Source of the DNA: Leptolyngbyaceae cyanobacterium
Lineage (GTDB): Bacteria > Cyanobacteriota > Cyanobacteriia > CAKZMO01
NCBI GenBank assembly: GCA_035284985.1
Contig: JAYKIC010000635.1
Coordinates: 1-33,127 of the forward strand
Length of the DNA: 33,127 nt
Direction: 5' to 3'
Shown here: positions 2,149 to 29,754 of the stretch, piece after piece
Numbering within the stretch: position 1 is the first letter of the stretch
Layout of the letters: each line of letters begins with the position of its first letter
The notes under the pieces: model-generated
Databases searched by the model: none
What the model was told of the DNA's origin: nothing
The model's input: the letters and a program-made list of their open reading frames with translations, nothing else
Position numbers and translations under genes: made by a program

Positions 2149-2203
2149 CAGCAGGGCGATCGCCATCCGGGGGCATCCTCAATCTATGGGCGATCGCCCT
2201 GCT
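2149..2203. repeat. 15-bp inverted repeat built on two HIP1 sites (stem-loop between gene 1 and gene 2)
   Basis: CAGCAGGGCGATCGCC at 2149-2164 pairs with GGCGATCGCCCTGCT at 2189-2203. No T-run follows, so I do not call it a terminator. It covers the upstream alternative start at 2186 of the next ORF. Confidence 0.4.
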
Positions 2204-2254
2204 AGCTATCCCCAGCAACGACGCAACGCGAAAATCTACCCTATTTCTAGAGCC

Positions 2255-14157: not shown

Positions 14158-14161
14158 AGGG

Positions 14162-14203
14162 GTGAGTGGGTGAGTGAGTGGGTGAGTGAGTGAGTGAGTG
14201 AGT
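14162..14203. repeat. Tetranucleotide microsatellite (GTGA/GTGG, about 10.5 units) 5 nt upstream of the baseplate-J start codon
   Basis: GTGAGTGGGTGAGTGAGTGGGTGAGTGAGTGAGTGAGTGAGT is read directly; on the mRNA strand it is (CACT/CACC)n. Confidence 0.9.
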
Positions 14204-14227
14204 TCCTGATTCTCAGCATCTTGCTGG

Positions 14228-14348
14228 TACCTGTTTACTGGAGCCGAAAGACCCACCCCTAGCCCCTCCTTGGAGGGGAATAGACTCTAGTCTAGGTTGT
14301 CCATCAACTGCTATCTCCTCTCTAGAGAGGGGTTGGGGGTGTGTTAAT
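14228..14348. repeat. MITE-like dispersed element, copy 1 (about 120 bp, two internal hairpins)
   Basis: TACCTGTTTA...GACCCACCCCTAGCCCCTCCTTGGAGGGG...ATCAACTGCTA...CTCTAGAGAGGGGTTGGGGGTGTGTTAAT aligns along its length with 18041-18160 and, inverted, with 26481-26596. Confidence 0.8.
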
Positions 14349-14351
14349 GTG

Positions 14352-14376
14352 GGTGCCCAGTCTCTGGCTGGGCACC
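14352..14376. repeat. Perfect hairpin GGTGCCCAG-TCTCTGG-CTGGGCACC (same family as 16431-16486)
   Basis: The 9-bp stem is read directly. A near-identical unit occurs at 16431-16455. Confidence 0.8.
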
Positions 14377-14431
14377 AGTTACCAGTTATTGTTTACTCCC
14401 TAATGTCCTAACTCCAAAACGCCCCAATGCT

Positions 14432-14857
14432 TTAACTCTGGGTGGCATTGAGATAAAACGGATAAACGAGACTCCTGATATCATGACTATCCTTGGGATG
14501 GTAACGAATCACAATGTTGACTAATCCTCGTAGGGGGTCTGGTTCTGTTGCTACTTCATCTAAGACTATCCGAGGCTCCCACTTTTCTAGCGCTTCCTGC
14601 ACACAGAGCCGAATCATCAGTAGGGTCTGTCCATTCATCGGCGCGAAGACTAAATCGGATAACCGACAGCCAAAATTAGGCCGATAAACCCGTTCCCCCA
14701 CCCGCGTTTTCAAGATAATCCGAATTGATTCATCCAGATTATGGCCTCCAGCGGTTAGCTGAAAATTGCCCTGCACACTGAGGCGGACGGGAAATCCCAC
14801 TCCTTGACCCAGGGGACCGTGGTTCCCATTAGCAGCATTGGACAGCGGTTCTGGCAT
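14432..14857 (-). CDS. GPW/gp25-family baseplate wedge protein (Afp9/Cis9-like)
   Basis: 141 aa. SIRIILKTRVGERVYRPNFGCRLSDLVFAPMN is the hallmark gp25 core. Confidence 0.9.
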   Translation of the reverse strand: MPEPLSNAANGNHGPLGQGVGFPVRLSVQGNFQLTAGGHNLDESIRIILKTRVGERVYRPNFGCRLSDLVFAPMNGQTLLMIRLCVQEALEKWEPRIVLDEVATEPDPLRGLVNIVIRYHPKDSHDIRSLVYPFYLNATQS

Positions 14858-15061: not shown

Positions 15062-16312
15062 TCAAGCCGCCTCTGTTACATCTTGTGATGGTTCCCCACG
15101 CCGATATTCATCCAAGCCTTGAGCTTCAATGGTTTTCCAGGTAGCGATCGCCTGCCCAAACTGAGCGTGAAGGAGTTCGAGATCATTGTGGAGGGCCGCT
15201 TCCAATTTTTGCGTTTCCATTGCAATCCAGTTTTCGATCCACTGCTTTTTCAACTGATCGGCTTGGGGTTTGCTCAATCCTTGGACATCAACATCAGGTT
15301 CGGGGCAACGGTCAGGTAAGCTTTCTAGCTCTGCTTGAAAGTGTTGTTTGCGTCCCGCGATCGCCTTGACCCCCAAGTCCTCAAAATCCGCAACTCTCTC
15401 CTGGGCGAAGTGGGCTTGAGTGAGACCCTGCGCCTGTTCTACGCTGCGGATATGGCGCGGAGGCCGGGGGTTAGCCACATACTGAAGACAGGCATCCAAT
15501 CGAACAAGGAGGAGGGCATCGAGAGCTGGGATGGTGTCACCAGGGATGTGAACCTCATAGCCAGGAATGAGTTCACCACAGGCTTCGGGAATCTCGAAGC
15601 GATCGCTTTGGACCTTTGCCACCAAGAGGTTGATGACAATGGGTATGGCCGCACTCGCCAAAGCCAGGGGAATGCCAGCGGGGAAGGAGACAATGAGCGC
15701 AATGATGCCTTCCGCAGTGATGGCAGCGATCGCCATAGCTTTTTCGGACTTGGGTTCTTCGGCCCAATATTGCGCCTCGACTTGCTGCACCAACTCCTTT
15801 TGACACTGATACTGATAGCGTTGGAAAACGGTAGGCTGCTCTAATTCATTGCATTCAGCCCGGAGTTGGGCAAGGGTCTGAAGGACGTTGTAGCGCATCC
15901 GTCGCCGCATGAGATAGCGGGTGGCATAGATATCGGTGAGGACGGCTGAGGCACCCCCGGCGATCGCCCCACCCGCAGCGGCAATGGGTCCGCGCCCGGT
16001 GGCCGAGACGAGGCCCATCGCACTACTGCCGACCACCAGTGCCCCAAAAATTCCCACGGCGGCGGTAATCAAGTGCTGGAGGGGGGCAGGCCAAGCGGAA
16101 CGCTCCACAATACCGAGTTGTTCGCATTGCTGGAGAGCAATGTGTGTGTGACTCATTTCTTCGATATAACCCTTGACCTTGCCGCGATCGTTTTCGCCGA
16201 GGCGCTGCTGGGTGACATCATCTGACAGTAGGAGCCACGCTCGAATCAAGCGAATGAACGTCTGATAGGGTAGGGGGAGATTATGAAATTTTTCTTGCAA
16301 TTTGTCGGACAT
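15062..16312 (-). CDS. Hypothetical membrane protein with glycine-zipper helices and a C-terminal coiled-coil region
   Basis: 416 aa. Two hydrophobic blocks are present: AAVGIFGALVVGSSAMGLVSATGRGPIAAAGGAIAGGASAV (Gly/Ala-zipper-like) and AIAAITAEGIIALIVSFPAGIPLALASAAIPIVINLLV. I recognised no family. Confidence 0.6.
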   Translation of the reverse strand: MSDKLQEKFHNLPLPYQTFIRLIRAWLLLSDDVTQQRLGENDRGKVKGYIEEMSHTHIALQQCEQLGIVERSAWPAPLQHLITAAVGIFGALVVGSSAMGLVSATGRGPIAAAGGAIAGGASAVLTDIYATRYLMRRRMRYNVLQTLAQLRAECNELEQPTVFQRYQYQCQKELVQQVEAQYWAEEPKSEKAMAIAAITAEGIIALIVSFPAGIPLALASAAIPIVINLLVAKVQSDRFEIPEACGELIPGYEVHIPGDTIPALDALLLVRLDACLQYVANPRPPRHIRSVEQAQGLTQAHFAQERVADFEDLGVKAIAGRKQHFQAELESLPDRCPEPDVDVQGLSKPQADQLKKQWIENWIAMETQKLEAALHNDLELLHAQFGQAIATWKTIEAQGLDEYRRGEPSQDVTEAA

Positions 16313-16360
16313 GGTTATTGTCTATCCTGTAGTGAATGTTGGTTAATCCGATTCCCTGTG

Positions 16361-16486
16361 TCCCAGCGTCTCGCTGGGATACTCCCAGAGGCTCTGCCTC
16401 AGAATTGTCTGGAGCCAGAGGCTCTGTTGGGGTGCCCAGTCTCCGGCTGGGCACCAGAGGCAAGTCTCCGGCTGGGCACCAGAGGC
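16361..16486. repeat. Array of GC-rich hairpins and short direct repeats in the intergenic space of the minus-strand cluster
   Basis: Hairpin CCCAGCG-TC-TCGCTGGG lies at 16361-16379. CCAGAGGC occurs four times. Hairpin GGTGCCCAGTCTCCGGCTGGGCACC lies at 16431-16455. GTCTCCGGCTGGGCACCAGAGGC is tandemly duplicated with a 25-nt period (16439-16461 and 16464-16486). Confidence 0.85.
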
Positions 16487-16501
16487 TAGACGGGAGCGGG
16501 A

Positions 16502-17260
16502 CTAGGATTGGGTTTGTCGGGCACGTTCAAAGGTTTGGCGGATGCAGCTTTGATGTTCGGCGACACTGCATATCCGGAGGTTGGGGTTCTGGGCACTGAG
16601 ATCATCTAACTCTTGGCGCAACGTTCCGGTAGGGCCAATGATTGTAACGTGTCCCTTCTGTTTGGTGATTTGGTTGATTTGGCTGCCCAGGATGGTGAAA
16701 TCAAGGGCAGGAAGACCGGGGCCAGGTTCAGCGGCTTGCAGCCAAATGATGGCAGCGATCGGGTAATCGTTTCCGGCGGTGCGTTGGATATCTATTTGGC
16801 AGAGAATGCGGTCCATTAAGACGATGGGAGAGGTTCCGGTGCCTTGGCCGACGGTATTGGGATGGGGCTGATTACTTTTAAAGACGTTACAGCGGGCGAA
16901 CAGTTGGGTAACGTTTTCCACTGCGCTGCTCCGGGTTGGTTCGGTGGTATCGGCAAAGAACAGGTCGATGGCGATGTCGTTGGGTTTGAGGCTCTGGGTC
17001 TGGTTGCGGCAGATGTGGTAGCCGATGGTGGGGTCAGCTAAGGCGGATTGGGAGACATCGCTGGCGAGGATGGCAATCACTTGCACGGTGCGGTACCACT
17101 CGATAATCGGGATGGCTCCAATGATGATGATCAAAGCAATGCCGAGCCAGAGTAGGGGCGATCGCCACAGTGGAGTCTGCTGGTTGGGGGTGGTTTGCCG
17201 TTGGGTGATTCGGCGGCGGCGGGAGCGGGAGCCAGGTGGAGCGAGGGTGGATTGACGCAT
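16502..17260 (-). CDS. Hypothetical N-terminally TM-anchored protein with a degenerate vWA-like alpha/beta domain
   Basis: 252 aa. An Arg-rich N-terminus and a TM helix (LLWLGIALIIIIGAIPII) come first. VIAILASDVSQS (DxSxS-like), GTGTS and AAIIWLQAAEPG follow in the order of vWA strands. The fold call is tentative. Confidence 0.5.
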   Translation of the reverse strand: MRQSTLAPPGSRSRRRRITQRQTTPNQQTPLWRSPLLWLGIALIIIIGAIPIIEWYRTVQVIAILASDVSQSALADPTIGYHICRNQTQSLKPNDIAIDLFFADTTEPTRSSAVENVTQLFARCNVFKSNQPHPNTVGQGTGTSPIVLMDRILCQIDIQRTAGNDYPIAAIIWLQAAEPGPGLPALDFTILGSQINQITKQKGHVTIIGPTGTLRQELDDLSAQNPNLRICSVAEHQSCIRQTFERARQTQS

Positions 17261-17276
17261 AAATTAAGTGTCCTGA

Positions 17277-17462
17277 TTAATTAGAAATGATAGGAGAGGG
17301 ATATTGCTGGTGGGTTGCTGGGGGGTGACTGAGCAGCAGTCCGAGACCGATGCCGAGGATGATTCCGGTGGTGCATCCTATCAGAAATAGGGAGAGGGGA
17401 GGGTGATGGGTGGCTGGAGGCGATCGCTCTTTCCTGGGATAACGATAATGTTGGCGGGTCAT
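17277..17462 (-). CDS. Small single-pass membrane peptide (61 aa)
   Basis: It is packed tightly between neighbours (16-nt and 30-nt gaps) on the same strand and has a central hydrophobic helix LSLFLIGCTTGIILGIGLGLLL. It could still be a spurious ORF. Confidence 0.4.
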   Translation of the reverse strand: MTRQHYRYPRKERSPPATHHPPLSLFLIGCTTGIILGIGLGLLLSHPPATHQQYPSPIISN

Positions 17463-17492
17463 GATGGTTGTGCTAAGTGTTGGGTCTATGGA

Positions 17493-17930
17493 TTAGTCGA
17501 GTTTGGATTGGAGGATGTGCTGGTGGGTGAGGCCAGGGGGCAAGTCCCGTCCGCCTTGGAGGTTGAGTAAGGGGTCCATGCTCTGAATCCGGGCACGTTC
17601 GATAATCTTGTGTTCCTTAGTAGGAAAGCAGGTGACGTAGAGGGCGCTGAGGGGGTTGCTGGAGATGGCCTGCTTTTGGGCCAGCAGTGCTTTAATTTGC
17701 TTGCTGCCGTTGCTGTGCTGGCGTAGGTGATTCTTCAGTCGATCGCGCATACTGCGTTTGGTGCGTCCGACATAGTGGATGTGGTAGCTATTGCTCCAAA
17801 ATCCGCTGGTGTAAGTGGCGATCGCATATACCCCCGATGTATCCAATGTCCTCGGTAGGTTGCTGGTATCGACTTCACCACGGGAGTTGACGGGGCATTT
17901 AATATACTTAGTCCAAGCCATTGGAGTCAT
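17493..17930 (-). CDS. GIY-YIG-like nuclease-domain protein
   Basis: 145 aa. GVYAI ... HYVGRTKRSMRDRLKNH ... KEHKIIERARI ... LLNLQGG follows the GIY-(10-11 aa)-YxG ... R ... E ... N order of the GIY-YIG superfamily. Confidence 0.6.
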   Translation of the reverse strand: MTPMAWTKYIKCPVNSRGEVDTSNLPRTLDTSGVYAIATYTSGFWSNSYHIHYVGRTKRSMRDRLKNHLRQHSNGSKQIKALLAQKQAISSNPLSALYVTCFPTKEHKIIERARIQSMDPLLNLQGGRDLPPGLTHQHILQSKLD

Positions 17931-18040: not shown

Positions 18041-18182
18041 TACCTGTTTAGCGAGGCCGAAAGACCCACCCCTAGCCCCTCCTAGGAGGGGAAAAATGCT
18101 AGTCTAAATTGTTTATCAACTGCTAGCTCCCCTCTTGAGAGGGGTCGGGGGTGTGTTAATCACGTTGACGCTAAACACGTAC
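18041..18182. repeat. MITE-like dispersed element, copy 2 (longest copy)
   Basis: It is in the same orientation as copy 1. Its extension CACGTTGACGCTAAACACGTAC is shared only with inverted copy 3. Confidence 0.8.
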
Positions 18183-18713: not shown

Positions 18714-18751
18714 TTCCAGGTCGATGGTCATTGTGAGGCGGATTGAAGTGT

Positions 18752-20359
18752 ATGGGTTGCAACAGGCAGATGAATGTTCAGTCTTCTGAAATAAATAAGG
18801 AAGAAGCCCTAGAGATCCTTAAAAATTTGCTGGGAAATGAATGGAAAGATATTTATAACATAATTTTTGATGGAACTTGGGAGAACCTGATATATGAAGA
18901 CATAGCGAAGAAATATAATAGTTCTAGCAGCTATCTTGAGAATGAAGGTCCGGAATTTTTCAAGAAAGTTTCCGAGAAACTAAGAAAATGTGGTGTTGTT
19001 AGTGCGGAAAACGTAGATAGGAAGGTTAGGTTTTCCAAAAATATAGTTTCTTGCCTATGCCATTTACAGGCTATACGGGAACAGTCAAGCCAGGATAGTG
19101 TGCTGGGATGTAGAACTCAGGTTGAGCAACGAGTTGATGAGTTCTCTAGAGCGATCGCCACGAACCAGCACCAACGTAGCCAATCTGAAGCATTAAACGA
19201 CATAGGGATCTTGCTCCATGAGCCGGAGGTGGAGCAAATGTGTGGACTGGCATATCGCTTAGTGTTGATGAAGAAAGGAACCATCCGAACCCTGCCCAGT
19301 GTTCAGTTGAAGGCCGCAGAATGGGTAAGCCAGATTAGTCAGCTTGCTCTCGGCACCTCAAACTATAGTCCATTGGAACTGTTTGCGGGTTTTTTGCGGG
19401 TTGTGCTGAGGTTGCAAAATCAAGGGGAACGAGTTGTTGCCTTTGATCAGTGGGGGGAAACCCACTATCACGACACTTGGGTGACGATGACATCAGAATT
19501 AAATGATTACTATGTCCAATATTCGGAGCAGATACAGTCCGCGTTGTTGATTGTGTTGAGTGCTATCAACCAGCAATATGGTGTACGCGGATGGTTGATC
19601 TATGACATGGACAGATATCGGAAGTATCACGAATCGGCTCAACAGTTGATGGTAGAGGGGGTATCAATCGACAAAAGTTATCCTTTGGATGAAGCCTTAG
19701 CATTTGTGCCACGTTATCTGACGGAAGCGCTTAGGTGGTGTGTGGAGACCCCAGAGATTCATGTATTTGTCCCTGGACGTTTGGTGAATCATGCTTTTGA
19801 ACAATGTTCATTGCCAGAAGAACTACGATTGCTGTCAGAAATTGATGAGATTGTCGGGCATGATTATCCAGTTTTGGTGCGTATTGGCGATCGCTTGAAC
19901 AAAAATTATCGTTACTCAACCCAATGGCGCATCAAGGGAGAGGCTTATTTAGCAGAATGTAAAAATGGTAATACGTCTGGAAGCAGGCCAGTTTTTTTGA
20001 GGATGACACCCGATGCAACCCTGGATCGTCAGGCTGCCCAAAACGCGCTAGGTATAGAATTGCAGGGATTGTCTCAAACAGGTAGCACTGATAATTTCGT
20101 GTTTACATTAATGAAAAAAGGGCTACCCTTTGCGATCTGGGAGCGGGGAGCGATCGCCTCAGAAACCGCGACAGCCGAGATTGACTATCTGCTACAGCAG
20201 TGTTGTTTGCCACACCTGCCTAGAACAGTTCAGGAAGTACGGTGTGGTGCTGCTGTTCAACGAGATGGAGAACCGTATCAAATTCGGGATAGTGTGTCGT
20301 TGTTATGGGATGATCCATTTTTGGTGCCACCGAACGTATGGGAGAAGCCAGGACCATGA
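18752..20359 (+). CDS. VMAP-type (vWA-MoxR-associated) protein with an N-terminal HTH-like module
   Basis: The track ORF starts at a TTG (18743); ATGs at 18752 and 18770 are alternatives. The N-terminal segment WKDIYNIIFDGTWENLIYEDIAKKYNSSSSYLENEGPEFFKKVSEKL resembles the module found at the N-termini of cyanobacterial STAND and vWA-MoxR partner proteins. Its stop overlaps the MoxR start (ATGA). The family assignment is by recall and gene context. Confidence 0.6.
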   Translation: MGCNRQMNVQSSEINKEEALEILKNLLGNEWKDIYNIIFDGTWENLIYEDIAKKYNSSSSYLENEGPEFFKKVSEKLRKCGVVSAENVDRKVRFSKNIVSCLCHLQAIREQSSQDSVLGCRTQVEQRVDEFSRAIATNQHQRSQSEALNDIGILLHEPEVEQMCGLAYRLVLMKKGTIRTLPSVQLKAAEWVSQISQLALGTSNYSPLELFAGFLRVVLRLQNQGERVVAFDQWGETHYHDTWVTMTSELNDYYVQYSEQIQSALLIVLSAINQQYGVRGWLIYDMDRYRKYHESAQQLMVEGVSIDKSYPLDEALAFVPRYLTEALRWCVETPEIHVFVPGRLVNHAFEQCSLPEELRLLSEIDEIVGHDYPVLVRIGDRLNKNYRYSTQWRIKGEAYLAECKNGNTSGSRPVFLRMTPDATLDRQAAQNALGIELQGLSQTGSTDNFVFTLMKKGLPFAIWERGAIASETATAEIDYLLQQCCLPHLPRTVQEVRCGAAVQRDGEPYQIRDSVSLLWDDPFLVPPNVWEKPGP

Positions 20360-21441
20360 CAAATTCACAAGGTGACTGGAGAGTCTTTCATGGGGATAAT
20401 CGTGCGCCTCACGACGAGGTGACAGCGTTACCCTCTTCACCCAGTTGGCGACCGTTTGGTCGGGATATTCGTCCGGGAGTGAGTCGGAGAAAGCGGCGCG
20501 GGGAAACCTTTCAGGCCCGTGATGAAGAAATTTCAATGGTGAATGCGGCGCTGTATTTGCGGCGACCGTTGCTGATTACGGGAAAGCCCGGAACGGGAAA
20601 ATCATCCTTGGCGTATGCCGTAGCACGGGAGTTAAATCTAGGAGAAGTTTTATACTGGCCGATTACGACACGCACCACATTGCAGGATGGTTTGTACCGC
20701 TATGATGCGATTGGTCGGTTGCAGGCAGTGAAACAGCAGGAAGGTCAGCCGCCCATTCAGCCAGGGTCGGAAACGCAGAAAAGCCAGCCGCCCATTCAGC
20801 CAGAGTCGGAAACCATCGGTAAATACTTGACCCTGGGACCATTGGGAACGGCATTGTTGCCATCGGCGCGACCCCGTGTGCTGTTAGTAGACGAGATCGA
20901 TAAGAGCGACATTGATTTGCCCAATGATTTGCTGTCGATTTTTGAAGAAGGTCGGTTTGAGATTCCAGAGTTGGTGCGCTTGGAACCGGATGAAGCCTCT
21001 GATGCAGTGCCGATGTCGGTACGAGTCCGAACGGCTTATACCGATGAAGAAGAGGTGACAGCAGTGGAACGCTACACTAACATTCAAGGCGGGCGGGTCG
21101 CTTGCCAATCTTTTCCGCTGGTGATCTTAACCAGCAATGGCGAACGGGAATTTCCTCCCCCGTTTCTCCGCCGTTGCTTGCGACTGCAAATTCGGGAACC
21201 AGATAAGGACGATTTGGAACGAATTATTACGGCTCATTTGGGGGATGATGATGTGTCTATCGATGATGCGTCGGTTCAAACCTTAATTACTCGGTTTATT
21301 GAGGCACGGAAAAAAGGCGAGTTGGCCACAGATCAGTTGCTCAATGCGCTGTTTATGGTGACTCGTGGGCGGGAGTTGGTGGGGGATGATCGAGAACAAC
21401 TCATCCAACGGCTATTATCCTCTTTGGAAAGTGAGGGTTAG
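20356..21441 (+). CDS. MoxR-like AAA+ ATPase
   Basis: Walker A is LLITGKPGTGKSSLAYAVA and Walker B is VLLVDEIDKSDIDLPNDLL. LILTSNGEREFPPPFLRRC is the sensor and Arg region. I prefer the ATG at 20356 (4-nt ATGA overlap with the upstream stop) over 20338. Confidence 0.88.
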   Translation: MTNSQGDWRVFHGDNRAPHDEVTALPSSPSWRPFGRDIRPGVSRRKRRGETFQARDEEISMVNAALYLRRPLLITGKPGTGKSSLAYAVARELNLGEVLYWPITTRTTLQDGLYRYDAIGRLQAVKQQEGQPPIQPGSETQKSQPPIQPESETIGKYLTLGPLGTALLPSARPRVLLVDEIDKSDIDLPNDLLSIFEEGRFEIPELVRLEPDEASDAVPMSVRVRTAYTDEEEVTAVERYTNIQGGRVACQSFPLVILTSNGEREFPPPFLRRCLRLQIREPDKDDLERIITAHLGDDDVSIDDASVQTLITRFIEARKKGELATDQLLNALFMVTRGRELVGDDREQLIQRLLSSLESEG

Positions 21442-21444
21442 CCC

Positions 21445-24171
21445 ATGCTGGCGGATTTGCTGGCTATCTTCAAAGCCTCTGGTCTCCTGGGTGATGATGT
21501 TGGCGAGGAGGGGCAGCCTCAGACAATTCCCTTGTTGAATGACGAGGATATTTTGGATGCGTTGTGGTTGGCTTTGCAGTTGCCGTCTGGTCAGGCTGAT
21601 CTCCTGCAATCGCTGCCCACTCTGGCTCCAGAGACTGATGCTAGAAAAGTGTCTGAGGGACCAGAACCGATACCGTCTGGCTTTGATGACGCGAGTGACG
21701 TAGGATTGCCCGCCGCTAATGCATATTTAGAGTCTGGCCCAACAAAGTCTGATGGGGTCGATCCTGAATCGCTCAAGGACGAAGGCTTGCCGATCAAAGT
21801 ACAGGAGGCTCCGGCGTTGCGTGAGGCTCGTGATATTGGTCGGGCATTGCGGCCATTGCGTCGGAAGGTGCCGTCGCCCTCGCGTCAGATGATTGATGAG
21901 GCGGCGACGGTGGATCAGATTGCTCGACAAGATATTTGGGTACCCGTACTTCAACCTGCCTTGGAGCGATGGTTGGACCTAGAACTGGTGATTGAAGCAT
22001 CCCCCTTTAGTTTTATTTGGCAGTCTACCCTAAAGGACTTTCGTCACATTCTGGAGCGTCAAGGGGCGTTTCGCACCGTGCGGAGTTGGACCTTAAAACA
22101 GGGAAACGATGGTCCGCGCATCTGGCCTCGACATCAAGATTGGCAGTCTGGGTCGGGTCGGAGCTTGGATGAGCTGATCTCAGCCTCTGGGCGTAGTGTG
22201 ATTATGGTGGTGAGTGACTGTCGATCGCCCTTATGGTCAGGGGAAGTGTGGGAATCGACAGATACGGCATCGCCCCCTATGGACTGGTATGGGTGGTTAC
22301 ATCGTTTGAGTCACAAAATGCCGACAGCCGTTGTGCAGTTGTTGCCGGAGTGGTTGTGGCCGGAGAGTGCGCTTGATCTGGGCTATGGGCTGAGCGTTCA
22401 TGCTCGATCCCGTGGTGTGCCCAATTCCCGGTTGGTGATGGATGATGTGCCCCTTTGGGAGCGGGTTGAGGCTCCCCATGCCTTGTTACTCCCGGTGATG
22501 CCGTTGTTGGCCTCGGCGTTAAAACAGTGGGCACAGGTGATTGCCGGACGGAGTGACTATCAAGCCTCGGCCCGGTTATTTGATCGTGCCTGGGTGGGCG
22601 ATCCTCATCGGCCTCGGCGGTCGGGGTCTCGCTTTGGAGTGGAAGCGTCGGCAGCAGAACGGGTGGAGTACTTTTTTGCGACGGCTTCTCCCTTGGCCCA
22701 ACGATTAGCGATGATGATGGCGGTGGTTCCGGTGGACTTGTCTGTGGTGCATTTGATTCAAGAGACTCTGTTGCCAGAATCTAATTATGTCCATGTGGCC
22801 GAGGTTTACAGTAGTGGGCTGTTGGCTTCAATGGCTTCGTCTGATAGACCTGTCCGAAAATTGGGGTGGAGTACCGCAGCGGGTACTCCACCCCAATTTT
22901 CGGACGACTCTGATGGGGATCGGGATGGGGGAGAGGATGGGAGGCATTATGCTTTTGTGCCCGGAGTGAGAGAGATATTAAATCAGTTAACCTCCGTGGA
23001 GGATGCGAAGGCGGTATTACATGAGTTATCCCAGGCCATTGCTGCTCGTTTGGGTTTGCCCCCGATCAAGCATTTTTCCGCGTTGTTGTTGCCTCAAAAG
23101 GAGTGGGACCAAGCTCAACAGGATGCCATTCTACCGTTTGCTCGGATTACGACTGGAGTGTTGTACCAGTTGGGGGGGGATTTTGCGGCATTAGCAGATG
23201 TGGTAGTAGAAGGGGTGAATGAGTGGGTGATGGACTCTGATCTGTTTGCAAGATTTCCACCGTTGCAACCTTTGGAGTTTGACACGGTTCAGCTACAGAT
23301 CCAAATCCCCACTACAGATATTGGTGCGGCTACACCAGCGGTTCAAACGATTGACTTTGAATATGTCACCTTGGAGCAGCAGCAACAGCGTTGGGTTGCT
23401 GTGCGTCATCCCGCTCAAGCCCGACGGTACGTGGAACCCCTGACCAATAATGTGGGTTTAGAGATGGTGTTGATTCCGGCTGGTACCTTCATCATGGGTG
23501 AAGGAAGTCAGGAGCATGAAGTGTCCGTGTCAGCGTTTTACATGGGCAAATACACGATTACCCAATCTCAATGGAAAGTGGTAGCAGCAATGGATGCGGT
23601 GAATCAAAAGTTGGACGCTGATCCCTCCCGCTTCAAAGGCGATAATTTACCCGTAGAGAGCGTGTCTTGGAATGATGCCGTAGAATTCTGCCAGCGGTTG
23701 TCTCGCTATACGGAGCACGAATATCGTCTCCCTAGTGAAGCCGAATGGGAATATGCCTGTCGAGCCGGAACCACGACGGCCTTTCATTTTGGTGAAACGG
23801 TTACAACGGATGTGGCTAACTACAATGGCAATTACACCTATAACAATGGACCTAAAGGTAGATATCGAGAAAAGACGATCGCTGTCGGTAGCTTAAATGC
23901 TCCTAATGCATTTGGGTTGCACGATATGCACGGAAACGTGTGGGAGTGGTGTGAGGATGACGATCATGCTAGTTATGCCAATCCCCCAACCGATGGCAGT
24001 GCTTGGGTCGATACTCCTCGTGGAAGCTCCCGTATCCTACGCGGCGGGTCTTGGGGCTTCGATCCTGATTATTGTCGTTCCGCGTATCGTGACGATCGAA
24101 CTCCCGGCAATCGCAACCTCAACATTGGTTTTCGTGTTGTTGTCTCCGCCCCAGGACTCAGTAGCTCTTAG
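21445..24171 (+). CDS. Multidomain protein: N-terminal helical module, vWA-like domain and C-terminal FGE-sulfatase (FGS, C-type-lectin fold) domain
   Basis: 908 aa, starting 3 nt after the MoxR stop. The vWA-like strands WLDLELVIEASPFSFIW (MIDAS Asp replaced by Glu) and SVIMVVSDCRSPLW are present. The C-terminal domain shows MVLIPAGTFIMG ... RLPSEAEWEYACRAG ... LHDMHGNVWEWC ... LRGGSW ... CRSAYR ... IGFRVV, the FGE-sulfatase signature. Confidence 0.85.
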   Translation: MLADLLAIFKASGLLGDDVGEEGQPQTIPLLNDEDILDALWLALQLPSGQADLLQSLPTLAPETDARKVSEGPEPIPSGFDDASDVGLPAANAYLESGPTKSDGVDPESLKDEGLPIKVQEAPALREARDIGRALRPLRRKVPSPSRQMIDEAATVDQIARQDIWVPVLQPALERWLDLELVIEASPFSFIWQSTLKDFRHILERQGAFRTVRSWTLKQGNDGPRIWPRHQDWQSGSGRSLDELISASGRSVIMVVSDCRSPLWSGEVWESTDTASPPMDWYGWLHRLSHKMPTAVVQLLPEWLWPESALDLGYGLSVHARSRGVPNSRLVMDDVPLWERVEAPHALLLPVMPLLASALKQWAQVIAGRSDYQASARLFDRAWVGDPHRPRRSGSRFGVEASAAERVEYFFATASPLAQRLAMMMAVVPVDLSVVHLIQETLLPESNYVHVAEVYSSGLLASMASSDRPVRKLGWSTAAGTPPQFSDDSDGDRDGGEDGRHYAFVPGVREILNQLTSVEDAKAVLHELSQAIAARLGLPPIKHFSALLLPQKEWDQAQQDAILPFARITTGVLYQLGGDFAALADVVVEGVNEWVMDSDLFARFPPLQPLEFDTVQLQIQIPTTDIGAATPAVQTIDFEYVTLEQQQQRWVAVRHPAQARRYVEPLTNNVGLEMVLIPAGTFIMGEGSQEHEVSVSAFYMGKYTITQSQWKVVAAMDAVNQKLDADPSRFKGDNLPVESVSWNDAVEFCQRLSRYTEHEYRLPSEAEWEYACRAGTTTAFHFGETVTTDVANYNGNYTYNNGPKGRYREKTIAVGSLNAPNAFGLHDMHGNVWEWCEDDDHASYANPPTDGSAWVDTPRGSSRILRGGSWGFDPDYCRSAYRDDRTPGNRNLNIGFRVVVSAPGLSSS

Positions 24172-24211
24172 TACTCTTGTTCTCTTTCTTTCCGTCTATC
24201 TGCCTCTTGTC

Positions 24212-24282
24212 CCCCTCCTCGGAGGGGTTAGGGGTGGGTCACAATCGTCCCCCCACCGCTCGTGTGTCCCCCCTGCTTTTGG
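24212..24282. repeat. 71-bp direct repeat, left copy, flanking the DUF559 gene
   Basis: It matches 24783-24853 at 70 of 71 positions (a single A/C difference) and contains the CCCCTCC-TCG-GAGGGG hairpin. Confidence 0.9.
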
Positions 24283-24317
24283 GAACACTAGAGCAGCACC
24301 TATTCACTCTTTTTTCT

Positions 24318-24740
24318 ATGCCTTATCCCATCATTCCCTACAATCCAAAGCTGAAAGAACGTGCCCGACAACTGCGTAAAAACATGACCGCAGGGGAGCG
24401 AAAACTATGGCAACATCTCAAGGGCAAGCAAATGATGGGCTATGATTTCGATCGCCAACGCCCCATTGACCAATTTATTGTGGATTTCTATTGCAAATCT
24501 CTCATGCTGGCGATCGAGATTGATGGTTCCTCCCATGATAGTGCTGAAGCTCAAGAGCGCGATCGTATCCGTCAATCCCGAATTGAGTCTTTTGGTGTAC
24601 AGTTTTTAAGATTCCAAGATCGGGAGGTGCTCCATCAAACGGATCAGGTGCTCACGGCGATTCAGCAATGGATTGAGTCTCGATGTTCAAAGGTGGAGCA
24701 GAACCCACCCCCTGCCCCTCCCCAGAGGGGTGTTGATTGA
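24318..24740 (+). CDS. DUF559 (Vsr-like endonuclease fold) domain protein
   Basis: MPYPIIPYNPKLKERARQLRKNMTAGERKLWQHLKGKQMMGYDFDRQRPIDQFIVDFYC ... LAIEIDGSSHD ... RDRIRQSRIESFGVQFLRF is a classic DUF559 sequence. I chose the ATG at 24318 because the upstream part of the track ORF lies in repeat DNA. The C-terminal tail reads into a repeat unit. Confidence 0.85.
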   Translation: MPYPIIPYNPKLKERARQLRKNMTAGERKLWQHLKGKQMMGYDFDRQRPIDQFIVDFYCKSLMLAIEIDGSSHDSAEAQERDRIRQSRIESFGVQFLRFQDREVLHQTDQVLTAIQQWIESRCSKVEQNPPPAPPQRGVD

Positions 24741-25035
24741 TTTGTAGGTGTTGGAAGTTGTGTGTATGGTCAGTCTCCGGTTCCCCTCCTCGGAGGGGTT
24801 AGGGGTGGGTCACAATCGTCCCCCCCCCGCTCGTGTGTCCCCCCTGCTTTTGGTGTGGCATTTGACCCACCCCCTGCCCCTCCAAGGAGGGGTGTTGGTT
24901 GATTTGTGGGTGTTGGAAGTTGTGTGTATGGTCAGTCTCCGGTTCCCCTCCTTGGAGGGGCTAGGGGTGGGTCATCTTTCGTGTGTTGAGCAAGCAGAAC
25001 CCACCCCCTGCCCCTCCCCAGAGGGGTGTTTTGGT
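24700..25035. repeat. Tandem array of about 130-165-bp composite repeat units (includes the right 71-bp direct repeat at 24783-24853)
   Basis: ACCCACCCCCTGCCCCTCC..GAGGGGTGTTG.TTGATTTGT.GGTGTTGGAAGTTGTGTGTATGGTCAGTCTCCGGTTCCCCTCCT.GGAGGGG.TAGGGGTGGGTCA starts at 24703 and 24866, and partially again at 24999. Confidence 0.85.
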
Positions 25036-25104
25036 CAACCCCGAAAACTTTCCGTATTTTTCTGAGATAGGGGAGGTGATGTTTTACCGTAAATGATGGG
25101 ATAG

Positions 25105-25269
25105 GCAGATAAACGCGGCGGGTCTTGGAACAACAATCCTGATAATTGTCGTTCCGCGTATCGTAACAATCAAACTCCCGACAATCGCAACAACAACATT
25201 GGTTTTCGTGTTGTTGTCTCCGCCCCTTCGCGTCAGCGTCTCCGGCAGGAGAAACACTCTTCCGTTTAA
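25105..25269 (+). pseudogene. Orphan 3' fragment of an FGE-sulfatase (FGS) domain gene
   Basis: A frame opening just after a TAG at 25102-25104 reads [39 protein letters not shown]. That is the last approximately 39 codons of the FGS domain as found at the ends of 21445-24171 and 25501-26316. It has no start codon and no upstream domain. Confidence 0.8.
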
Positions 25270-25500
25270 GGTGAAGAGCCTTTGGCCAGAACTGGCAGGT
25301 GGGAATCTGTCAGGCGTGCAAGTGAAGAGTCCAGCCCTATTCCAGTGATGACATGACTTTACCCACCTCTGACTCCTCCCAGGAGGAGAATAAGTGGGGA
25401 GAGGATGTGTGATCCAAATATCAACCGGAGCCAGGGGTCTTGGTAGGATTATCCGAAGAGTTGTCTGGCTCCACCCCTTATTTAAGCGAACGCACCCCTC

Positions 25501-26316
25501 ATGGCTGAACTCACGCTGGTTCCCGAACGGAAACGGACTCAATACTATGTGGAAGACCTGGGCGGAGGCATCACGATGGATATGGTGTTGATTCCGGCTG
25601 GGACGTTTATGATGGGGTCTCCAGAGGATGAGCGAGACCAATCCGATGAAGGTCCACAGCATGAAGTTACTCTCCCGCAATTCTTTATGGGCCGCTACCC
25701 CGTGACGCAGGCCCAATGGAAACAGGTTGCTGGGATGCCAGAGGTGAATCAACGCTTAGAGGCTGATCCCTCTGAGTTTAAGGGTGATACCCATCCGGTT
25801 GAGCGAGTCAGTTGGCATGATGCAGTGGAGTTTTGTGCCCGTCTCTACCAGCATACGAATCGAAACTATCGTTTGCCGAGTGAGGCTGAGTGGGAATATG
25901 CCTGCCGAGCTGGAACCGAAACCCCATTTTATTTTGGTCCGACCATCTCTACTGACTTAGCCAATTACGATGGTGACTACACGTATGGGGATGGCCCCAA
26001 AGGTGAATATCGAAAGCGAACCACCCCTGTAGACCATTTTCGCTATGCCAATGCCTTTGGCTTGCATGATATGCATGGCAACGTCTGGGAGTGGTGTGCG
26101 GATCACTGGCATTCAAATTATGAAGAGGCACCGACAGATGGAAGTGCCTGGATCGAAGGCAGAGACAGCGATCGGACAGTTATACGCGGCGGGTCTTGGC
26201 TCTTCAATCCGGCTGCTTGTCGTTCCGCGTATCGTAACGATCGTATTCCCGCCCATCGCTACTACGACATCGGTTTCCGTGTTGTTGTCTCCGCCCCAGG
26301 ACTCCGTAGCCCTTAG
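25501..26316 (+). CDS. Stand-alone FGE-sulfatase (FGS) domain protein
   Basis: 271 aa. MVLIPAGTFMMGSPEDE ... RLPSEAEWEYACRAG ... LHDMHGNVWEWC ... IRGGSW ... CRSAYRNDR ... [12 protein letters not shown]. It aligns along its whole length (many identical blocks, roughly two thirds by eye) with the C-terminal domain of the 908-aa protein. Confidence 0.88.
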   Translation: MAELTLVPERKRTQYYVEDLGGGITMDMVLIPAGTFMMGSPEDERDQSDEGPQHEVTLPQFFMGRYPVTQAQWKQVAGMPEVNQRLEADPSEFKGDTHPVERVSWHDAVEFCARLYQHTNRNYRLPSEAEWEYACRAGTETPFYFGPTISTDLANYDGDYTYGDGPKGEYRKRTTPVDHFRYANAFGLHDMHGNVWEWCADHWHSNYEEAPTDGSAWIEGRDSDRTVIRGGSWLFNPAACRSAYRNDRIPAHRYYDIGFRVVVSAPGLRSP

Positions 26317-26384
26317 TACTCTTGTTCTTTTTCTTTCCGCCTTCCGCCTCTTTATTATTTTTCTGTAGAAATTTAGAGTTGGGG

Positions 26385-26660
26385 GTTGGGGATTGTGACC
26401 CACCCCTAGCCCCTCCCAGGAGGGGAAGTGGGAGTGGGGAAGTGGGGAGTGGGGATTGTGACCCACCCCTAGCCCTCCTTGTATGTGTTTAGCGTCAACA
26501 TTAGTAACACACCCCCGACCCCTCTCAAGAGGGGAGCTAGCAGTTGATAAATACCTCAAACTAGAATTTATCCCCCTCCTGGGAGGGGAAATGGGAGTGG
26601 GGAAGTGGGGATTGTGACCCACCCCTAGCCCCTCCCAGGAGGGGAAGTGGGAGGGGCTAG
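26385..26660. repeat. Composite repeat cluster: 46-bp direct repeats bracketing an inverted MITE-like copy 3
   Basis: GGGGATTGTGACCCACCCCTAGCCCCTCCCAGGAGGGGAAGTGGGAG occurs at 26388-26433 and 26607-26652, with a truncated copy at 26449-26478. Positions 26481-26596 are the reverse complement of 18080-18182. GGGGA(A)GT heptamer runs are also present. Confidence 0.85.
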
Positions 26661-26783: not shown

Positions 26784-27209
26784 CTATCCTTCTTGCTCTT
26801 TTTTCTGTTTTTCCTCTAACTCTTTCTGCTTTTCCTCCGATTCCTTCTTCATCGCATCCATCTGAGCCTGTACCGCTGGCGGCGGCGGCACCGGAGTGCC
26901 CATATCGCCAACCAAAACATTGGGCTGTCCCTTCACAATCGTTGTGGCGACGGGGATCGGTACTCCTAGGGGACCAATGGTCAGACCATTAACCATCGAT
27001 GTGATCCGTGCGGCGGGTCGTCCACCAATCAAAACCGTAAATGCGCCCGTGGAGATAATGCCAGGGGCGTAGTTGATCACTGGACCGTAGACCATATCCC
27101 CAACACAGGCAGCGGGCATTCCCCCAATTAACACATTGGGTGTACCGGGTGGCAAGACATTATCTCCGGTAGCGGTGATATCAGTGACTCGTGCGGCTGG
27201 AAACGTCAT
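26784..27209 (-). CDS. PAAR-domain spike-tip protein with a charged K/E-rich C-terminal tail
   Basis: 141 aa with three PAAR-type motifs (FPAARVTD, GGMPAACVGD, GGRPAARITS). It lies immediately downstream of the VgrG-like gene. Confidence 0.9.
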   Translation of the reverse strand: MTFPAARVTDITATGDNVLPPGTPNVLIGGMPAACVGDMVYGPVINYAPGIISTGAFTVLIGGRPAARITSMVNGLTIGPLGVPIPVATTIVKGQPNVLVGDMGTPVPPPPAVQAQMDAMKKESEEKQKELEEKQKKEQEG

Positions 27210-27304
27210 CGATCGCTCTTCCTTTCAATCACACCTAGTTTCATAGTTCTATCGTACTTCTAGCTTAATTCTGGTCTGGGGTTCCGTTCTGTGTAAAAGT
27301 AGGC

Positions 27305-29200
27305 TTAATTCAGCTTAATCAATCCCCCTTGCACTTGGACGATTCCCCCTTTCACCTCGGTCATCGCCCCCCCTTGAATTTTAACGGTCGTACCTGCCTG
27401 AATCGTAATACCACTCATAGACAGTTCTACCTTGTTGGCCCCAACAGTGAGAGTAATTTTCTGAGTCCCAGTGAGGCTGATCTCTCCCGCATTGAGGCTA
27501 ATTTTATTGCTGGTTCCCGTCCCCCCTGCTTTGATAGTGATATCTCCGGTGGACGTGAGGCTAATAGTTTTGTTGGCATCGTCATTTCTAAGGGTATGGC
27601 CACCATTGGTTTTTAATTCCACAAACTTATCACTATCGTTGAGAGAAAAATGATGGTTTCCGGTGGTGTCTAAATACACGCCTTTTTTAGAACCACCTTT
27701 GTCTTCTTCCCTGAATTGCAGGGTGTGACCTGTGCGAGTTCTGAAGGTGCGGAGGCGGACTTTGCCATCGGCGACAGAATCCTGGACTGCTTCTGGAGGC
27801 TTGTCCTTGCCGTTCCAGACAGCCCCAATGATATAAGGGCGGCGAATGTCCCCATGTTCAAACGCCACTAAAACTTCATCATCCACTTCAGGCAAACAAT
27901 CAAAGCCTCGGTTAAGACCAGCTCCGGGGGCGACAATCCTAGCCCAATTACTTTCATGCTCTTCGGTGAGGGTGGGAAATTTCACCCGGACACGGCCCCA
28001 GCCTTGGGGATCATTGTTATTAGTGACTCTGCCTACGAGGAGGGTCTGTCCCGGTTGGGGGCGGTTGGGTGGTGTGAGGAGTGACAATAAATCGCCCCCC
28101 CGCAATCCTCGGACGCTAAATTCGGTGGTGTAAACCCGCTCGATGAATAGGTGACGGGTTTCGGTGATGTAATAGTCGCCGCTGTATTTGCCCATGCCGT
28201 CGAGGGTGATGACTTTGCCGGGGCGGATGTCGGGGTTGCCTTGGGCGATCGCATCCGCATGGATAAACTCACTGCCCAGCTCATCAATCAGGGCTTGGGC
28301 GATCGTGTCCGCTTCTTTTTGGCTAAATACAGGCTGATCGACTACCACCAGCGTGGGTGAGGAAGGCTTTCCCCCAAAGGCGCTACTACTTTCTTTTCCC
28401 CGGCCCTGATCCGTCTCAGTTAGAACGTTGGCAGAGTTCCGGGTGGCGACAAAGGGCTGCTTTTTAGTGTAATCCCAACCGCGCACTTCCACACTACCCA
28501 CCTGCTCAGCACTGTTAACCTGAACTTGAAAACTACTGATTTCTTTAAGCCAACGTAGATTGAGTGTGCTATTCACATTGGGTTTACGGAAACTGAGCTT
28601 GCCATTTTCCACAAATAGCTCGAATCCATTCCGCGCTGCCCGGTCCCGCAAAAACTCCATATTGGTTTGGTTGGATTGGAAGACATAATCATGGGGGGCA
28701 CCGCTGTTATCCACCGTACCCAGGGGAATCCCATTTTCCTGGACCACTTCCGAAACAATGTCGCTGTCAGTATAATTTTGAAAGGAGCGATTGTGGCGAC
28801 CGCGATGCAACCGATGGGAGACATCATAGCCCCGAATAATCAGGGGTGCTTGGGCACCGGAGGTAAAGTGGGTTTCCATGGCGGTGATCTCCCCTTCAAT
28901 CACCGTACCCTCAATTTGGTCGTCAAATTCGACTGACTCGGTGGTGCTGGACTTAAAGCCAATTTTGACCACTTGACCAATCTTGAAAAAACTCTCGTAT
29001 TTATCCCGTAGGTTTGATTCTTCTGCCTGTCCAGGGAAATAGGGCGATCGCACCACCAACGTGAACATGCCCGGTCGATGTAGACTCTCCTCCACCGACA
29101 GTTGCAGCAAATCTTCCAGTAACGCCGCCATGATTTCGTCGGGGGGCGTTCTACCATCAATCTGGATAATGGGTTCGGAAATATAGCGGCTAGGGCACAT
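27305..29200 (-). CDS. VgrG-like spike protein (gpD plus gp5 OB-fold plus beta-helix; Afp8/Cis8-like)
   Basis: 631 aa with a gpD-like N-terminal half. GRVTNNNDPQGWGRVRVKFPTL ... WARIVAPGAGLNRGFDCLPEVDDEVLVAFEHGDIRRPYIIGAVWNG is the gp5/gpV OB-fold core. A repetitive beta-helix-like C-terminus follows. Confidence 0.9.
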   Translation of the reverse strand: MCPSRYISEPIIQIDGRTPPDEIMAALLEDLLQLSVEESLHRPGMFTLVVRSPYFPGQAEESNLRDKYESFFKIGQVVKIGFKSSTTESVEFDDQIEGTVIEGEITAMETHFTSGAQAPLIIRGYDVSHRLHRGRHNRSFQNYTDSDIVSEVVQENGIPLGTVDNSGAPHDYVFQSNQTNMEFLRDRAARNGFELFVENGKLSFRKPNVNSTLNLRWLKEISSFQVQVNSAEQVGSVEVRGWDYTKKQPFVATRNSANVLTETDQGRGKESSSAFGGKPSSPTLVVVDQPVFSQKEADTIAQALIDELGSEFIHADAIAQGNPDIRPGKVITLDGMGKYSGDYYITETRHLFIERVYTTEFSVRGLRGGDLLSLLTPPNRPQPGQTLLVGRVTNNNDPQGWGRVRVKFPTLTEEHESNWARIVAPGAGLNRGFDCLPEVDDEVLVAFEHGDIRRPYIIGAVWNGKDKPPEAVQDSVADGKVRLRTFRTRTGHTLQFREEDKGGSKKGVYLDTTGNHHFSLNDSDKFVELKTNGGHTLRNDDANKTISLTSTGDITIKAGGTGTSNKISLNAGEISLTGTQKITLTVGANKVELSMSGITIQAGTTVKIQGGAMTEVKGGIVQVQGGLIKLN

Positions 29201-29217
29201 CGCAACACTGACTCCAT

Positions 29218-29754
29218 TTATATAAACCGTTCTCGCCCGGAAGCCGCCCGTTGAGCGGCACTGAGGGCCGGAGCAGACTGTCCGGGACGCGGGGTGGGTT
29301 CATCCACCTGCTCTAGGGTCAAATCCACGAGGGCACGAACGGGGGTACCGTCCGGCAAAAATAGGGTGAGCTTGAAACTCAGGGTCTTGACGAAACAACG
29401 CAAATACTCATTTGCACCCCAAGTAAAAAGATAAATGGGAGGCCGTTTGTTGGCTTCCTCGCCATCCTGCATAAATTCCACCCCACGGGCAAATTTGCGA
29501 ATATAGGGACGCACACTCACCTGATCTTCGTAGGTGTCTAGCACAATGTTACTAATGGTGAGCGAGTAGGGGTTGGGGTGCTTAAAGCTGGTTTTGGGTT
29601 CTCCAGTATTAGTGCTAGCCCCTTGGGGTTGTTCCAAACTAATGGAGCGGCTAAAGCTCAATTCATTTGGATTAAACATAAAATCAATATGATTTTCGTG
29701 GTTTTCGCTGGACTGATATTCCACATCAATTAACTTGGCCTTGGCTAGTGTCAT
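29218..29754 (-). CDS. CIS tube-protein-fold / tube-initiator-like protein (Afp7/Cis7-like, no LysM seen)
   Basis: 178 aa. IDFMFNPNELSFSRS ... PPIYLFTWGANEYLRCFVKTLSFKLTLFLPDGTPVRALVDLTLEQ matches the pattern of CIS tube N-terminal domain proteins found just upstream of VgrG in eCIS loci. The call is by recall. Confidence 0.7.
   Translation of the reverse strand: MTLAKAKLIDVEYQSSENHENHIDFMFNPNELSFSRSISLEQPQGASTNTGEPKTSFKHPNPYSLTISNIVLDTYEDQVSVRPYIRKFARGVEFMQDGEEANKRPPIYLFTWGANEYLRCFVKTLSFKLTLFLPDGTPVRALVDLTLEQVDEPTPRPGQSAPALSAAQRAASGRERFI

Follow-up and report, generated by a model that had tools for sequence, protein, structure and literature searches.

A probable diversity-generating retroelement, without a detected reverse transcriptase, attached to a VMAP-MoxR-vWA conflict system in a Leptolyngbyaceae cyanobacterium

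We analysed a contig of a Leptolyngbyaceae cyanobacterium (JAYKIC010000635.1, assembly GCA_035284985.1; 33,127 nt, hereafter the window), which carries two genes that end in an FGE-sulfatase domain (FGS, of the C-type-lectin fold) and, between them, a non-coding copy of the 3' end of that domain. The original prediction, made from the sequence by eye, had taken this layout for cassette exchange acting on the sensor domain of a conflict system. Our analysis makes it very probable that the module is instead a diversity-generating retroelement (DGR) attached to a VMAP-MoxR-vWA ternary conflict system, with neither its reverse transcriptase (RT) nor its partner protein Avd on the contig. The repeats and the two genes that hold them are as follows.

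21445 to 24171, plus strand: gene of the 908-aa sensor, DGR target gene 1, with a SAV_2336-type N-terminal (vWA component) domain and a C-terminal FGS domain
24039 to 24152, plus strand: predicted variable region 1 (VR1), the last 38 codons before the putative homing element in the 908-aa gene
25106 to 25226, plus strand: predicted template repeat (TR), earlier called an orphan fragment; non-coding, an about 120-nt copy of the FGS 3' end
25501 to 26316, plus strand: gene of the 271-aa stand-alone FGS protein, DGR target gene 2 (Pfam FGE-sulfatase, E = 4.6e-60)
26177 to 26297, plus strand: predicted variable region 2 (VR2), the 3' end of the 271-aa gene

In the 908-aa protein, the NCBIfam model SAV_2336_NTERM scores 382 bits against a cut-off of 200, and Pfam places the FGE-sulfatase domain at residues 673-899. 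Full-length homologues of this protein share 36-47% identity with it and are cyanobacterial wherever the organism is named. The 271-aa protein matches the DGR variable protein TvpA (2y3c, E = 1.6e-19) in a PDB sequence search.

The FGS 3' end is indeed present in three copies on one strand, and so are the three identical runs described for them: within the window, CGCGGCGGGTCTTGG was found exactly three times (24040, 25114, 26185), as were TGTCGTTCCGCGTATCGT (24073, 25147, 26218) and CGTGTTGTTGTCTCCGCCCC (24133, 25207, 26278). TR, VR1 and VR2 align without gaps, and we counted mismatches within 25113-25226, which contains 28 adenines and 86 non-A sites. VR1 is 89.5% identical to TR; all 12 of its mismatches fall at TR adenines (Fisher p = 5.5e-9) and 0 of the 86 non-A sites is altered, so that VR1 has not drifted from TR at non-adenine sites. 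VR2 is 82.6% identical to TR, with 15 of its 19 mismatches at TR adenines (Fisher p = 4e-8), and the four non-A changes comprise three synonymous ones and one Thr to Ile replacement. The reported differences between the conserved blocks are not scattered; almost all of them sit at TR adenines. Read in the VR frame, these adenines lie mostly in AAC/AAT codons, and nearly every variable codon is AAC or AAT in TR, where the genes encode Gly, Phe, Asp, Tyr, Leu, Ala, His and others; about 16 codons of TR are rewritable in this sense. The TR/VR relation and its adenine bias were also recovered by an independent blast-based scan.

The likeness of the FGS copies goes beyond the conservation of protein motifs, because third-codon-position identity between the 908-aa and 271-aa genes rises in the last ~40 codons only, from 0.30-0.65 over most of the domain to 0.85-0.90, while amino-acid identity in the same ~40 codons is 0.55-0.65. 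Third positions that are homogenised inside the VR and nowhere else are what would be expected if one template overwrites both genes. Judged from these sequence comparisons, the former orphan is very probably the TR of a DGR and the ends of both FGS genes are its variable regions, and we predict with high confidence that the pattern in the VRs was written by DGR mutagenic retrohoming.

The homology between the two FGS genes extends beyond both stop codons, as had been claimed: 24150-24197 and 26295-26342 are 92% identical over 48 nt and then diverge. The VRs end 17-19 nt upstream of the stop codons, and each is followed by a stretch that resembles the initiation of mutagenic homing (IMH) element of known DGRs.

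24153 to 24197, plus strand: IMH-like stretch after VR1 (AGGACTCAGTAGCTCTTAGTACTCTTG...), with the stop codon 24169-24171 inside
26298 to 26342, plus strand: IMH-like stretch after VR2, with the stop codon 26314-26316 inside

This ~45-nt stretch is common to VR1 and VR2 and absent after TR. In 11 related DGR loci, a motif (GGACTCnGTAGCnCTTT... / ...GGACTCnGTAGCnCTTTnnnCTCTTnnCCCT...) follows every listed VR, and in the TRs of those loci [C/T]ACTCTTC and the RNA scaffold stand in its place; in the window, both VR1 and VR2 bear the motif as AGGACTC[A/C]GTAGC[T/C]CTTAGTACTCTTG.... By analogy, the stretch would correspond to the distinction between IMH and IMH* and may have a role in homing. In Trichodesmium erythraeum, a 35-bp conserved stretch 3' of the VRs is considered necessary for homing (Pfreundt et al., PMC4143802). 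Folded as DNA, the post-VR stretches of the window gave no hairpin or cruciform (z = +0.5 and +1.1), and the GC hairpins nearest to the window VRs are part of repeats that resemble miniature inverted-repeat transposable elements (MITEs); the same DNA folding placed a hairpin ~55 nt downstream in the VR flank of T. erythraeum.

TR itself lies in a longer structured RNA, for which the following elements were obtained.

25098 to 25475, plus strand: predicted DGR RNA gene of ~380 nt, TR with flanking cis-acting structure (from covariance model and covariation)
25098 to 25105, plus strand: upstream half of the TR-spanning duplex, GGGATAGG, with its partner CCTATTCC at 25336-25343
25292 to 25313, plus strand: 9-bp stem with a GGGA (GNRA) tetraloop, candidate Avd-binding stem-loop (coordinates from the single-sequence fold)
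25428 to 25438 with 25460 to 25471, plus strand: long covarying 3' stem

In an alignment of 12 loci, the RNA 3' of TR is laid out as an ACTCTTC/GAAGAGT stem enclosing the GNRA-capped stem, single-stranded conserved blocks and the long 3' stem. RNAalifold predicted 32 pairs from the TR flanks of these 12 loci, 16 of them with compensatory changes, and the GNRA-capped 9-bp stem shows 4-5 compensatory pairs across the clade. The 8-bp duplex that spans TR reads GGGAUAGG/CCUAUUCC in the window versus GGGACAGG/CCUGUUCC in the clade consensus, a compensatory change from C-G to U-A, and its energy of -12.2 kcal/mol was reached by 0 of 200 shuffles. The minimum free energy fold of the window RNA alone gave the same elements. 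We also built a covariance model (R1) of the post-TR RNA domain, ~155 nt long, from 11 relatives with the window excluded. R1 had one match in the window (25274-25475, plus strand, 88.2 bits, E = 1.2e-21) and found five loci outside its training set; scores in relatives are mostly 93-162 bits, with two partial matches lower. It finds template RNAs of this DGR clade without recourse to protein genes. At the gathering threshold Rfam had no match in the window, and the post-TR RNA has no Rfam family. An Avd-binding stem-loop and a TR-spanning 'stop duplex' have been reported for cyanobacterial DGRs (bioRxiv 10.1101/2023.10.23.563531); the window elements match these types, and by analogy they may make the same kind of protein-RNA contacts. 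In a scan of 24100-26500, the sole terminator-like hairpin was at 25009-25028. One related locus (L045) has intact Avd and RT, yet neither an R1 match nor a TR was detected there, and it may use a different RNA.

For comparison we assembled 82 related loci (numbered with the prefix L), two by exact protein look-up (L001, L002) and 80 with a profile built from the 908-aa protein outside its FGS domain. An automated scan for A-biased repeat pairs found one TR with two to three VRs in 11 of the 82, T. erythraeum IMS101 included. RTs were searched with a hidden Markov model (HMM) of eight RTs recognised by their GNLTSQ...YVDDF motifs, and Avd with jackhmmer seeded with the annotated bAvd of L001. 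The canonical order is vWA-FGS(VR1) - [FGS] - Avd - RT - TR - FGS(VR2), with RVT_1 and bAvd confirmed by Pfam. Among 56 assessable loci, 11 have full-length RT and Avd (though a stop codon interrupts the RT in one, T. erythraeum), three have RT fragments, four have Avd fragments only, two keep the TR-associated RNA domain but neither RT nor Avd, the state in which the window is also found, and 36 showed no DGR part within the retrieved flanks. A short FGS gene lies 3' of TR in L001, L004, L005, L009, L013, L014, L018, L032, L042 and L066, and the 271-aa gene is therefore seen as a conserved second recipient.

Several relatives carry damaged RTs. The RT pseudogene of L001 (13044-13572) has lost model positions ~97-291 internally, the RT of L066 (10915-11538) is truncated after position ~170, and that of L042 (5002-6075) is a split open reading frame (ORF); all three adjoin a high-scoring TR-RNA domain, and A-specific TR/VR pairs were detected in L001 and L066. 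In L081 (5740-6042) the VR of the vWA-FGS gene passes straight into the post-TR RNA domain (111 bits), without Avd, RT or a separate TR, which looks like a deletion by homologous recombination between VR1 and TR and hence a second route to RT loss.

Two explanations other than a DGR have to be weighed against these data. RecA-type cassette gene conversion of the pilE/pilS or vlsE kind, as originally proposed, would exchange segments of the three FGS copies, with the conserved blocks as anchors, and the locus recalls it in its direct repeats, its conserved blocks around variable ones, its one silent copy and its homology beyond the ORFs. The idea that the silent partial copy is the donor feeding the 3' ends of both FGS genes has held up. 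However, there is just one silent copy, and an invariant one, where systems of this type hold several divergent cassettes; the variable blocks coincide with the AAC/AAT adenines of the donor, with varied bases in the expressed copies (the 12/12 and 15/19 counts above), as would be expected of error-prone reverse transcription; the post-stop homology is specific to the VRs and missing from the donor, whereas a conversion anchor would have to be shared with it; a DGR RNA scaffold surrounds the donor; and syntenic relatives encode the DGR RT and Avd in the locus, between VR1 and TR. Nor does the stand-alone 271-aa gene behave as a cassette, since many relatives keep it as a recipient 3' of TR. 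Because adenine specificity, a single invariant donor and a post-stop homology absent from that donor contradict the cassette model, we regard it as highly improbable. Ordinary diverging paralogues beside a decayed pseudogene fragment would make the identical runs FGE motifs (RGGSW, CRSAYR, GFRVV), and these motifs, the best conserved in the family, are indeed what the runs encode. Against this, synonymous sites are identical inside the VR and not elsewhere, the mismatches are non-random in both comparisons (p about 1e-8), and a conserved structured RNA follows the 'pseudogene', which leaves this explanation a vanishingly small chance. The orphan was also considered as a decayed third FGS gene; we rejected this, since its A-richness in AAC/AAT codons, the direction in which the mismatches run and the enclosing DGR RNA scaffold all point to a template. 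In spirit, the prediction that the sensor domain of a conflict system is being diversified was right.

For the DGR, then, the adenine-specific relation of TR to its VRs, the conserved RNA scaffold, the 3' element specific to VRs and the synteny with complete DGRs are observed directly in the sequence, and they would fit the following course. TR (25106-25226), presumably transcribed, would be carried within the structured ~380-nt RNA (25098-25475). The DGR RT with Avd would copy TR to cDNA with random bases opposite template adenines, and this cDNA would overwrite VR1 and VR2, the homologous 3' ends of the two target genes (908 aa and 271 aa). Targeting would depend on the GC-rich repeat end and on the ~45-nt element found only after VRs, so that the homology of both genes past their stop codons would be explained by the targeting element that follows each VR. 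In this way about 16 codons would be re-randomised, predicted from homology with TvpA and Mtd to lie on the ligand-binding face of the C-type-lectin fold. The FGS domain may act as an antigen sensor, as has been argued for such proteins by Dore et al. (PMC10907252).

The place that Avd and RT take in the canonical order is filled by other DNA in the window.

24199 to 25030, strand not assigned: filler in the Avd-RT slot, a DUF559 gene and GC-rich palindromic MITE-like repeats
24318 to 24740, plus strand: DUF559 endonuclease-like gene (Pfam DUF559, E = 1.6e-32)

The filled slot spans from the end of the VR1 3' element (~24198) to the predicted 5' end of the TR RNA (~25085), and its repeats belong to families D1, D2, D4 and D6 and inverted pairs I1-I10. 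With the Avd-RT segment replaced by the DUF559 gene and repeats, the module cannot run on its own. The GC-rich MITE-like palindromic repeat, TGACCCACCCC(T/C)..CCCCTCCnnnnGGAGGGG, is restricted to intergenic DNA (14250-14280, 18063-18145, 24199-25030, 25361-25390 and 26376-26656), with clusters of copies at either border of the VMAP/DGR island, in the slot that formerly held Avd-RT and within a variable TR-RNA loop (25361-25390). DUF559 homologues occur at the equivalent site, immediately 3' of the vWA-FGS gene, in two Okeania loci, L035 (12900-13331, minus strand) and L040 (13132-13533, minus strand), on the strand opposite to that of the window's gene and in loci without RT or TR, which suggests that the slot has been colonised repeatedly by a small mobile or selfish gene.

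A number of results weigh against reading the module as a DGR, or at least as an intact one. The RT and Avd searches covered the entire 33,127-nt contig: no RVT_1 was found by Pfam among ORFs of at least 120 aa, no RT with the HMM of the relatives' eight RTs (ORFs of at least 40 aa) or by tblastn at E <= 10, and no Avd by jackhmmer or by tblastn at E <= 10, neither intact nor as fragments, so that a defining DGR component is unverified for the host organism. VR2 has drifted: it departs from TR at four non-adenine positions and, over the 48-nt 3' stretch, from VR1 at another four; in T. erythraeum, comparable drift in VRs has been read as loss of targeting (PMC4143802). The R1 score of the window (88 bits) is below that of most relatives, and the TR RNA carries three insertions that are lineage-specific when compared with relatives, one of 27 nt exactly at the TR/[C/T]ACTCTTC junction, one of 19 nt in the first stem and one of about 60 nt with a copy of the MITE-like repeat; the low score and each of the insertions may mean decay. 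Upstream of TR, no consensus promoter was found in the scan of 24100-26500. Lastly, the genome and metagenome collections searched held no near-identical strain or population in which VR variation over time could be observed: exact look-ups of the 271-aa, 908-aa and GyrB proteins returned no identical record, and scans of GTDB genomes and of JGI metagenomes with TR (N at adenines) or a window-specific RNA piece gave no match.

As for its present state, we lean slightly towards the module being a recently disabled relic. It could instead be active in trans, the TR-RNA gene and its two targets forming a working satellite that is served by the RT-Avd of another DGR locus in the same genome, and to this we give a somewhat smaller chance. 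In its favour, the whole cis-acting RNA is kept (upstream duplex half, TR, GNRA stem-loop and 3' stem) and compensatory changes maintain its pairing, none of the 86 non-A sites has drifted in VR1, and the replacement took the Avd-RT slot only, leaving the RNA unit intact from about 25085. Diversification in trans of incomplete DGR loci has also been inferred in Thiohalocapsa (PMC10907252), and TRs located 'elsewhere in the genome' are mentioned by Kaur et al. (PMC7159879). On the other side, RT or Avd could not be demonstrated for the host organism in the 33-kb contig searched, a promoter was not detected, and the insertions at the TR/priming junction together with the low covariance-model score could reflect relaxed constraint. 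The intactness of the TR RNA cannot decide the matter, because VRs are likewise clean, and the RNA likewise high-scoring, in relatives whose RT is dead (L001, T. erythraeum IMS101). That the module is a functional 'RT-less satellite' kept under selection and driven in trans by a remote RT-Avd is a tentative proposal that we find rather doubtful. If it holds, cyanobacterial DGRs would form distributed networks: a single enzyme would work on several template RNAs, and each of these RNAs would be reserved for one sensor pair of a conflict system.

Upstream of the DGR parts, the 908-aa gene closes an operon whose other members are listed below.

18743 to 20359, plus strand: VMAP (vWA-MoxR associated protein) gene, first of the ternary conflict operon (Pfam VMAP-C, PF20028)
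20338 to 21441, plus strand: MoxR-like AAA+ ATPase gene (Pfam AAA_5, E = 7.7e-10; weak bpMoxR match)

VMAP-C matches residues 278-525 of the VMAP protein (PF20028, E = 2.6e-22), and the N-terminal ~280 aa (18743-19600) belong to no family in Pfam, NCBIfam or PHROGs. The start of the MoxR-like ATPase gene overlaps the VMAP stop, and the gene order VMAP, MoxR, vWA recurs in L001 and L002. VMAP, MoxR AAA+ and a vWA component with a C-terminal effector or sensor are thus encoded co-directionally, as predicted for a VMAP-MoxR-vWA ternary system. No EAD adaptor, peptidase or TIR effector gene was recognised beside the window operon, unlike in L001, where EAD9-CHAT and Trypco2 adjoin it.

The surroundings of this operon include baseplate and spike genes of a contractile injection system (CIS) in two minus-strand blocks, 11944-14857 and 26784-29754, with Baseplate_J and gp25 on one side and PAAR, a VgrG-like spike and CIS_tube on the other. 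Between the blocks lie minus-strand ORFs at 15062-17930, a GIY-YIG-like gene among them, and the plus-strand VMAP/DGR island (18743-26316), which looks like an insertion into the CIS cluster or a CIS cargo. For the unassigned neighbour ORFs, PHROGs and NCBIfam gave no match. Near the start of the window, 309-2060 encodes a 583-aa protein that has both an integrin-beta-type VWA domain and RTX calcium-binding repeats, and the 522-aa ORF after it (2186-3754) matches no family.

With the DGR, the repeats are explained by a well-understood mechanism in place of a speculative recombination model, and each part receives a role, the orphan as donor, both genes as recipients and the post-stop homology as putative homing signal. 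The locus adds another VMAP-MoxR-vWA sensor pair diversified by a DGR. Related loci can be arranged in a decay series (RT stop codon, internal RT deletion, RT truncation, VR/TR recombination deletion and slot replacement) in which the window, its slot replaced by mobile DNA, is the last stage, and it bears on whether TR-RNA genes outlive, or function apart from, their RT.

The closest known system is the DGR of T. erythraeum IMS101 (Tery_1727-1731; Doulatov 2004; Pfreundt 2014, PMC4143802), which is L032 among our loci. It shares with the window the vWA-FGS gene (VR1), a TR with structured RNA and a short FGS gene (VR2) in the same order and on the same strand, a ~120-nt TR (26 adenines versus 28 in the window, 17 codons versus about 16), a homologous post-VR motif (CCAGGACTC..TAGC.CTT), a homologous post-TR RNA domain (157 bits versus 88 bits) and a TR-to-VR2 spacing of about 910 and 950 nt. 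It differs in that Avd and RT are kept between VR1 and TR, the RT having one stop codon in the cultured strain, and protein identity is only about 43% over the matched region. Its TR RNA is an abundant 265-nt transcript (PMC4143802), with which the RNA elements of the window also agree, and it has 12 VRs genome-wide, whereas the window contig shows two. The DGR of Bordetella phage BPP-1 (mtd-avd-TR-brt) is alike in its adenine-specific TR to VR transfer into a C-terminal region of C-type-lectin fold, its VR-specific 3' element (IMH) versus a divergent TR counterpart (IMH*), and a TR set in an RNA with a structured downstream spacer, an Avd-binding stem-loop and a TR-spanning duplex. Unlike the cyanobacterial clade, in which TR is downstream of RT, BPP-1 has TR upstream of RT; its target is a phage tail fibre and not an intracellular conflict-system sensor, and the window differs further in having no detected hairpin or cruciform in the 45-nt post-VR stretch and no RT or Avd on the contig.

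Among conflict systems, Kaur et al. 2020 (PMC7159879) reported an association with DGRs for about 80% of the VMAP ternary systems of cyanobacteria and gammaproteobacteria, with FGS fused to the vWA component and TR nearby or elsewhere. The window agrees with them in its VMAP-MoxR-vWA operon and the C-terminal FGS on the vWA component, and departs from them in a VMAP without a recognisable N-terminal effector or EAD domain. The DGRs of Thiohalocapsa sp. PB-PSB1 and of clade 5E cyanobacteria (Dore et al. 2024, PMC10907252) likewise diversify C-type-lectin (CLec) sensors of VMAP/MoxR systems, pair a long target with a short CLec-only one, include RT-less loci and are reshaped by mobile elements and MITE-like repeats; for their incomplete loci diversification was observed in metagenomes, whereas the window is known from the sequence of one contig. 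Unlike those loci, the window retains the TR-RNA gene without RT or Avd. The kind of system is already known, and its sole unusual trait is this complete TR-RNA unit left after a clean replacement of Avd-RT by mobile DNA.

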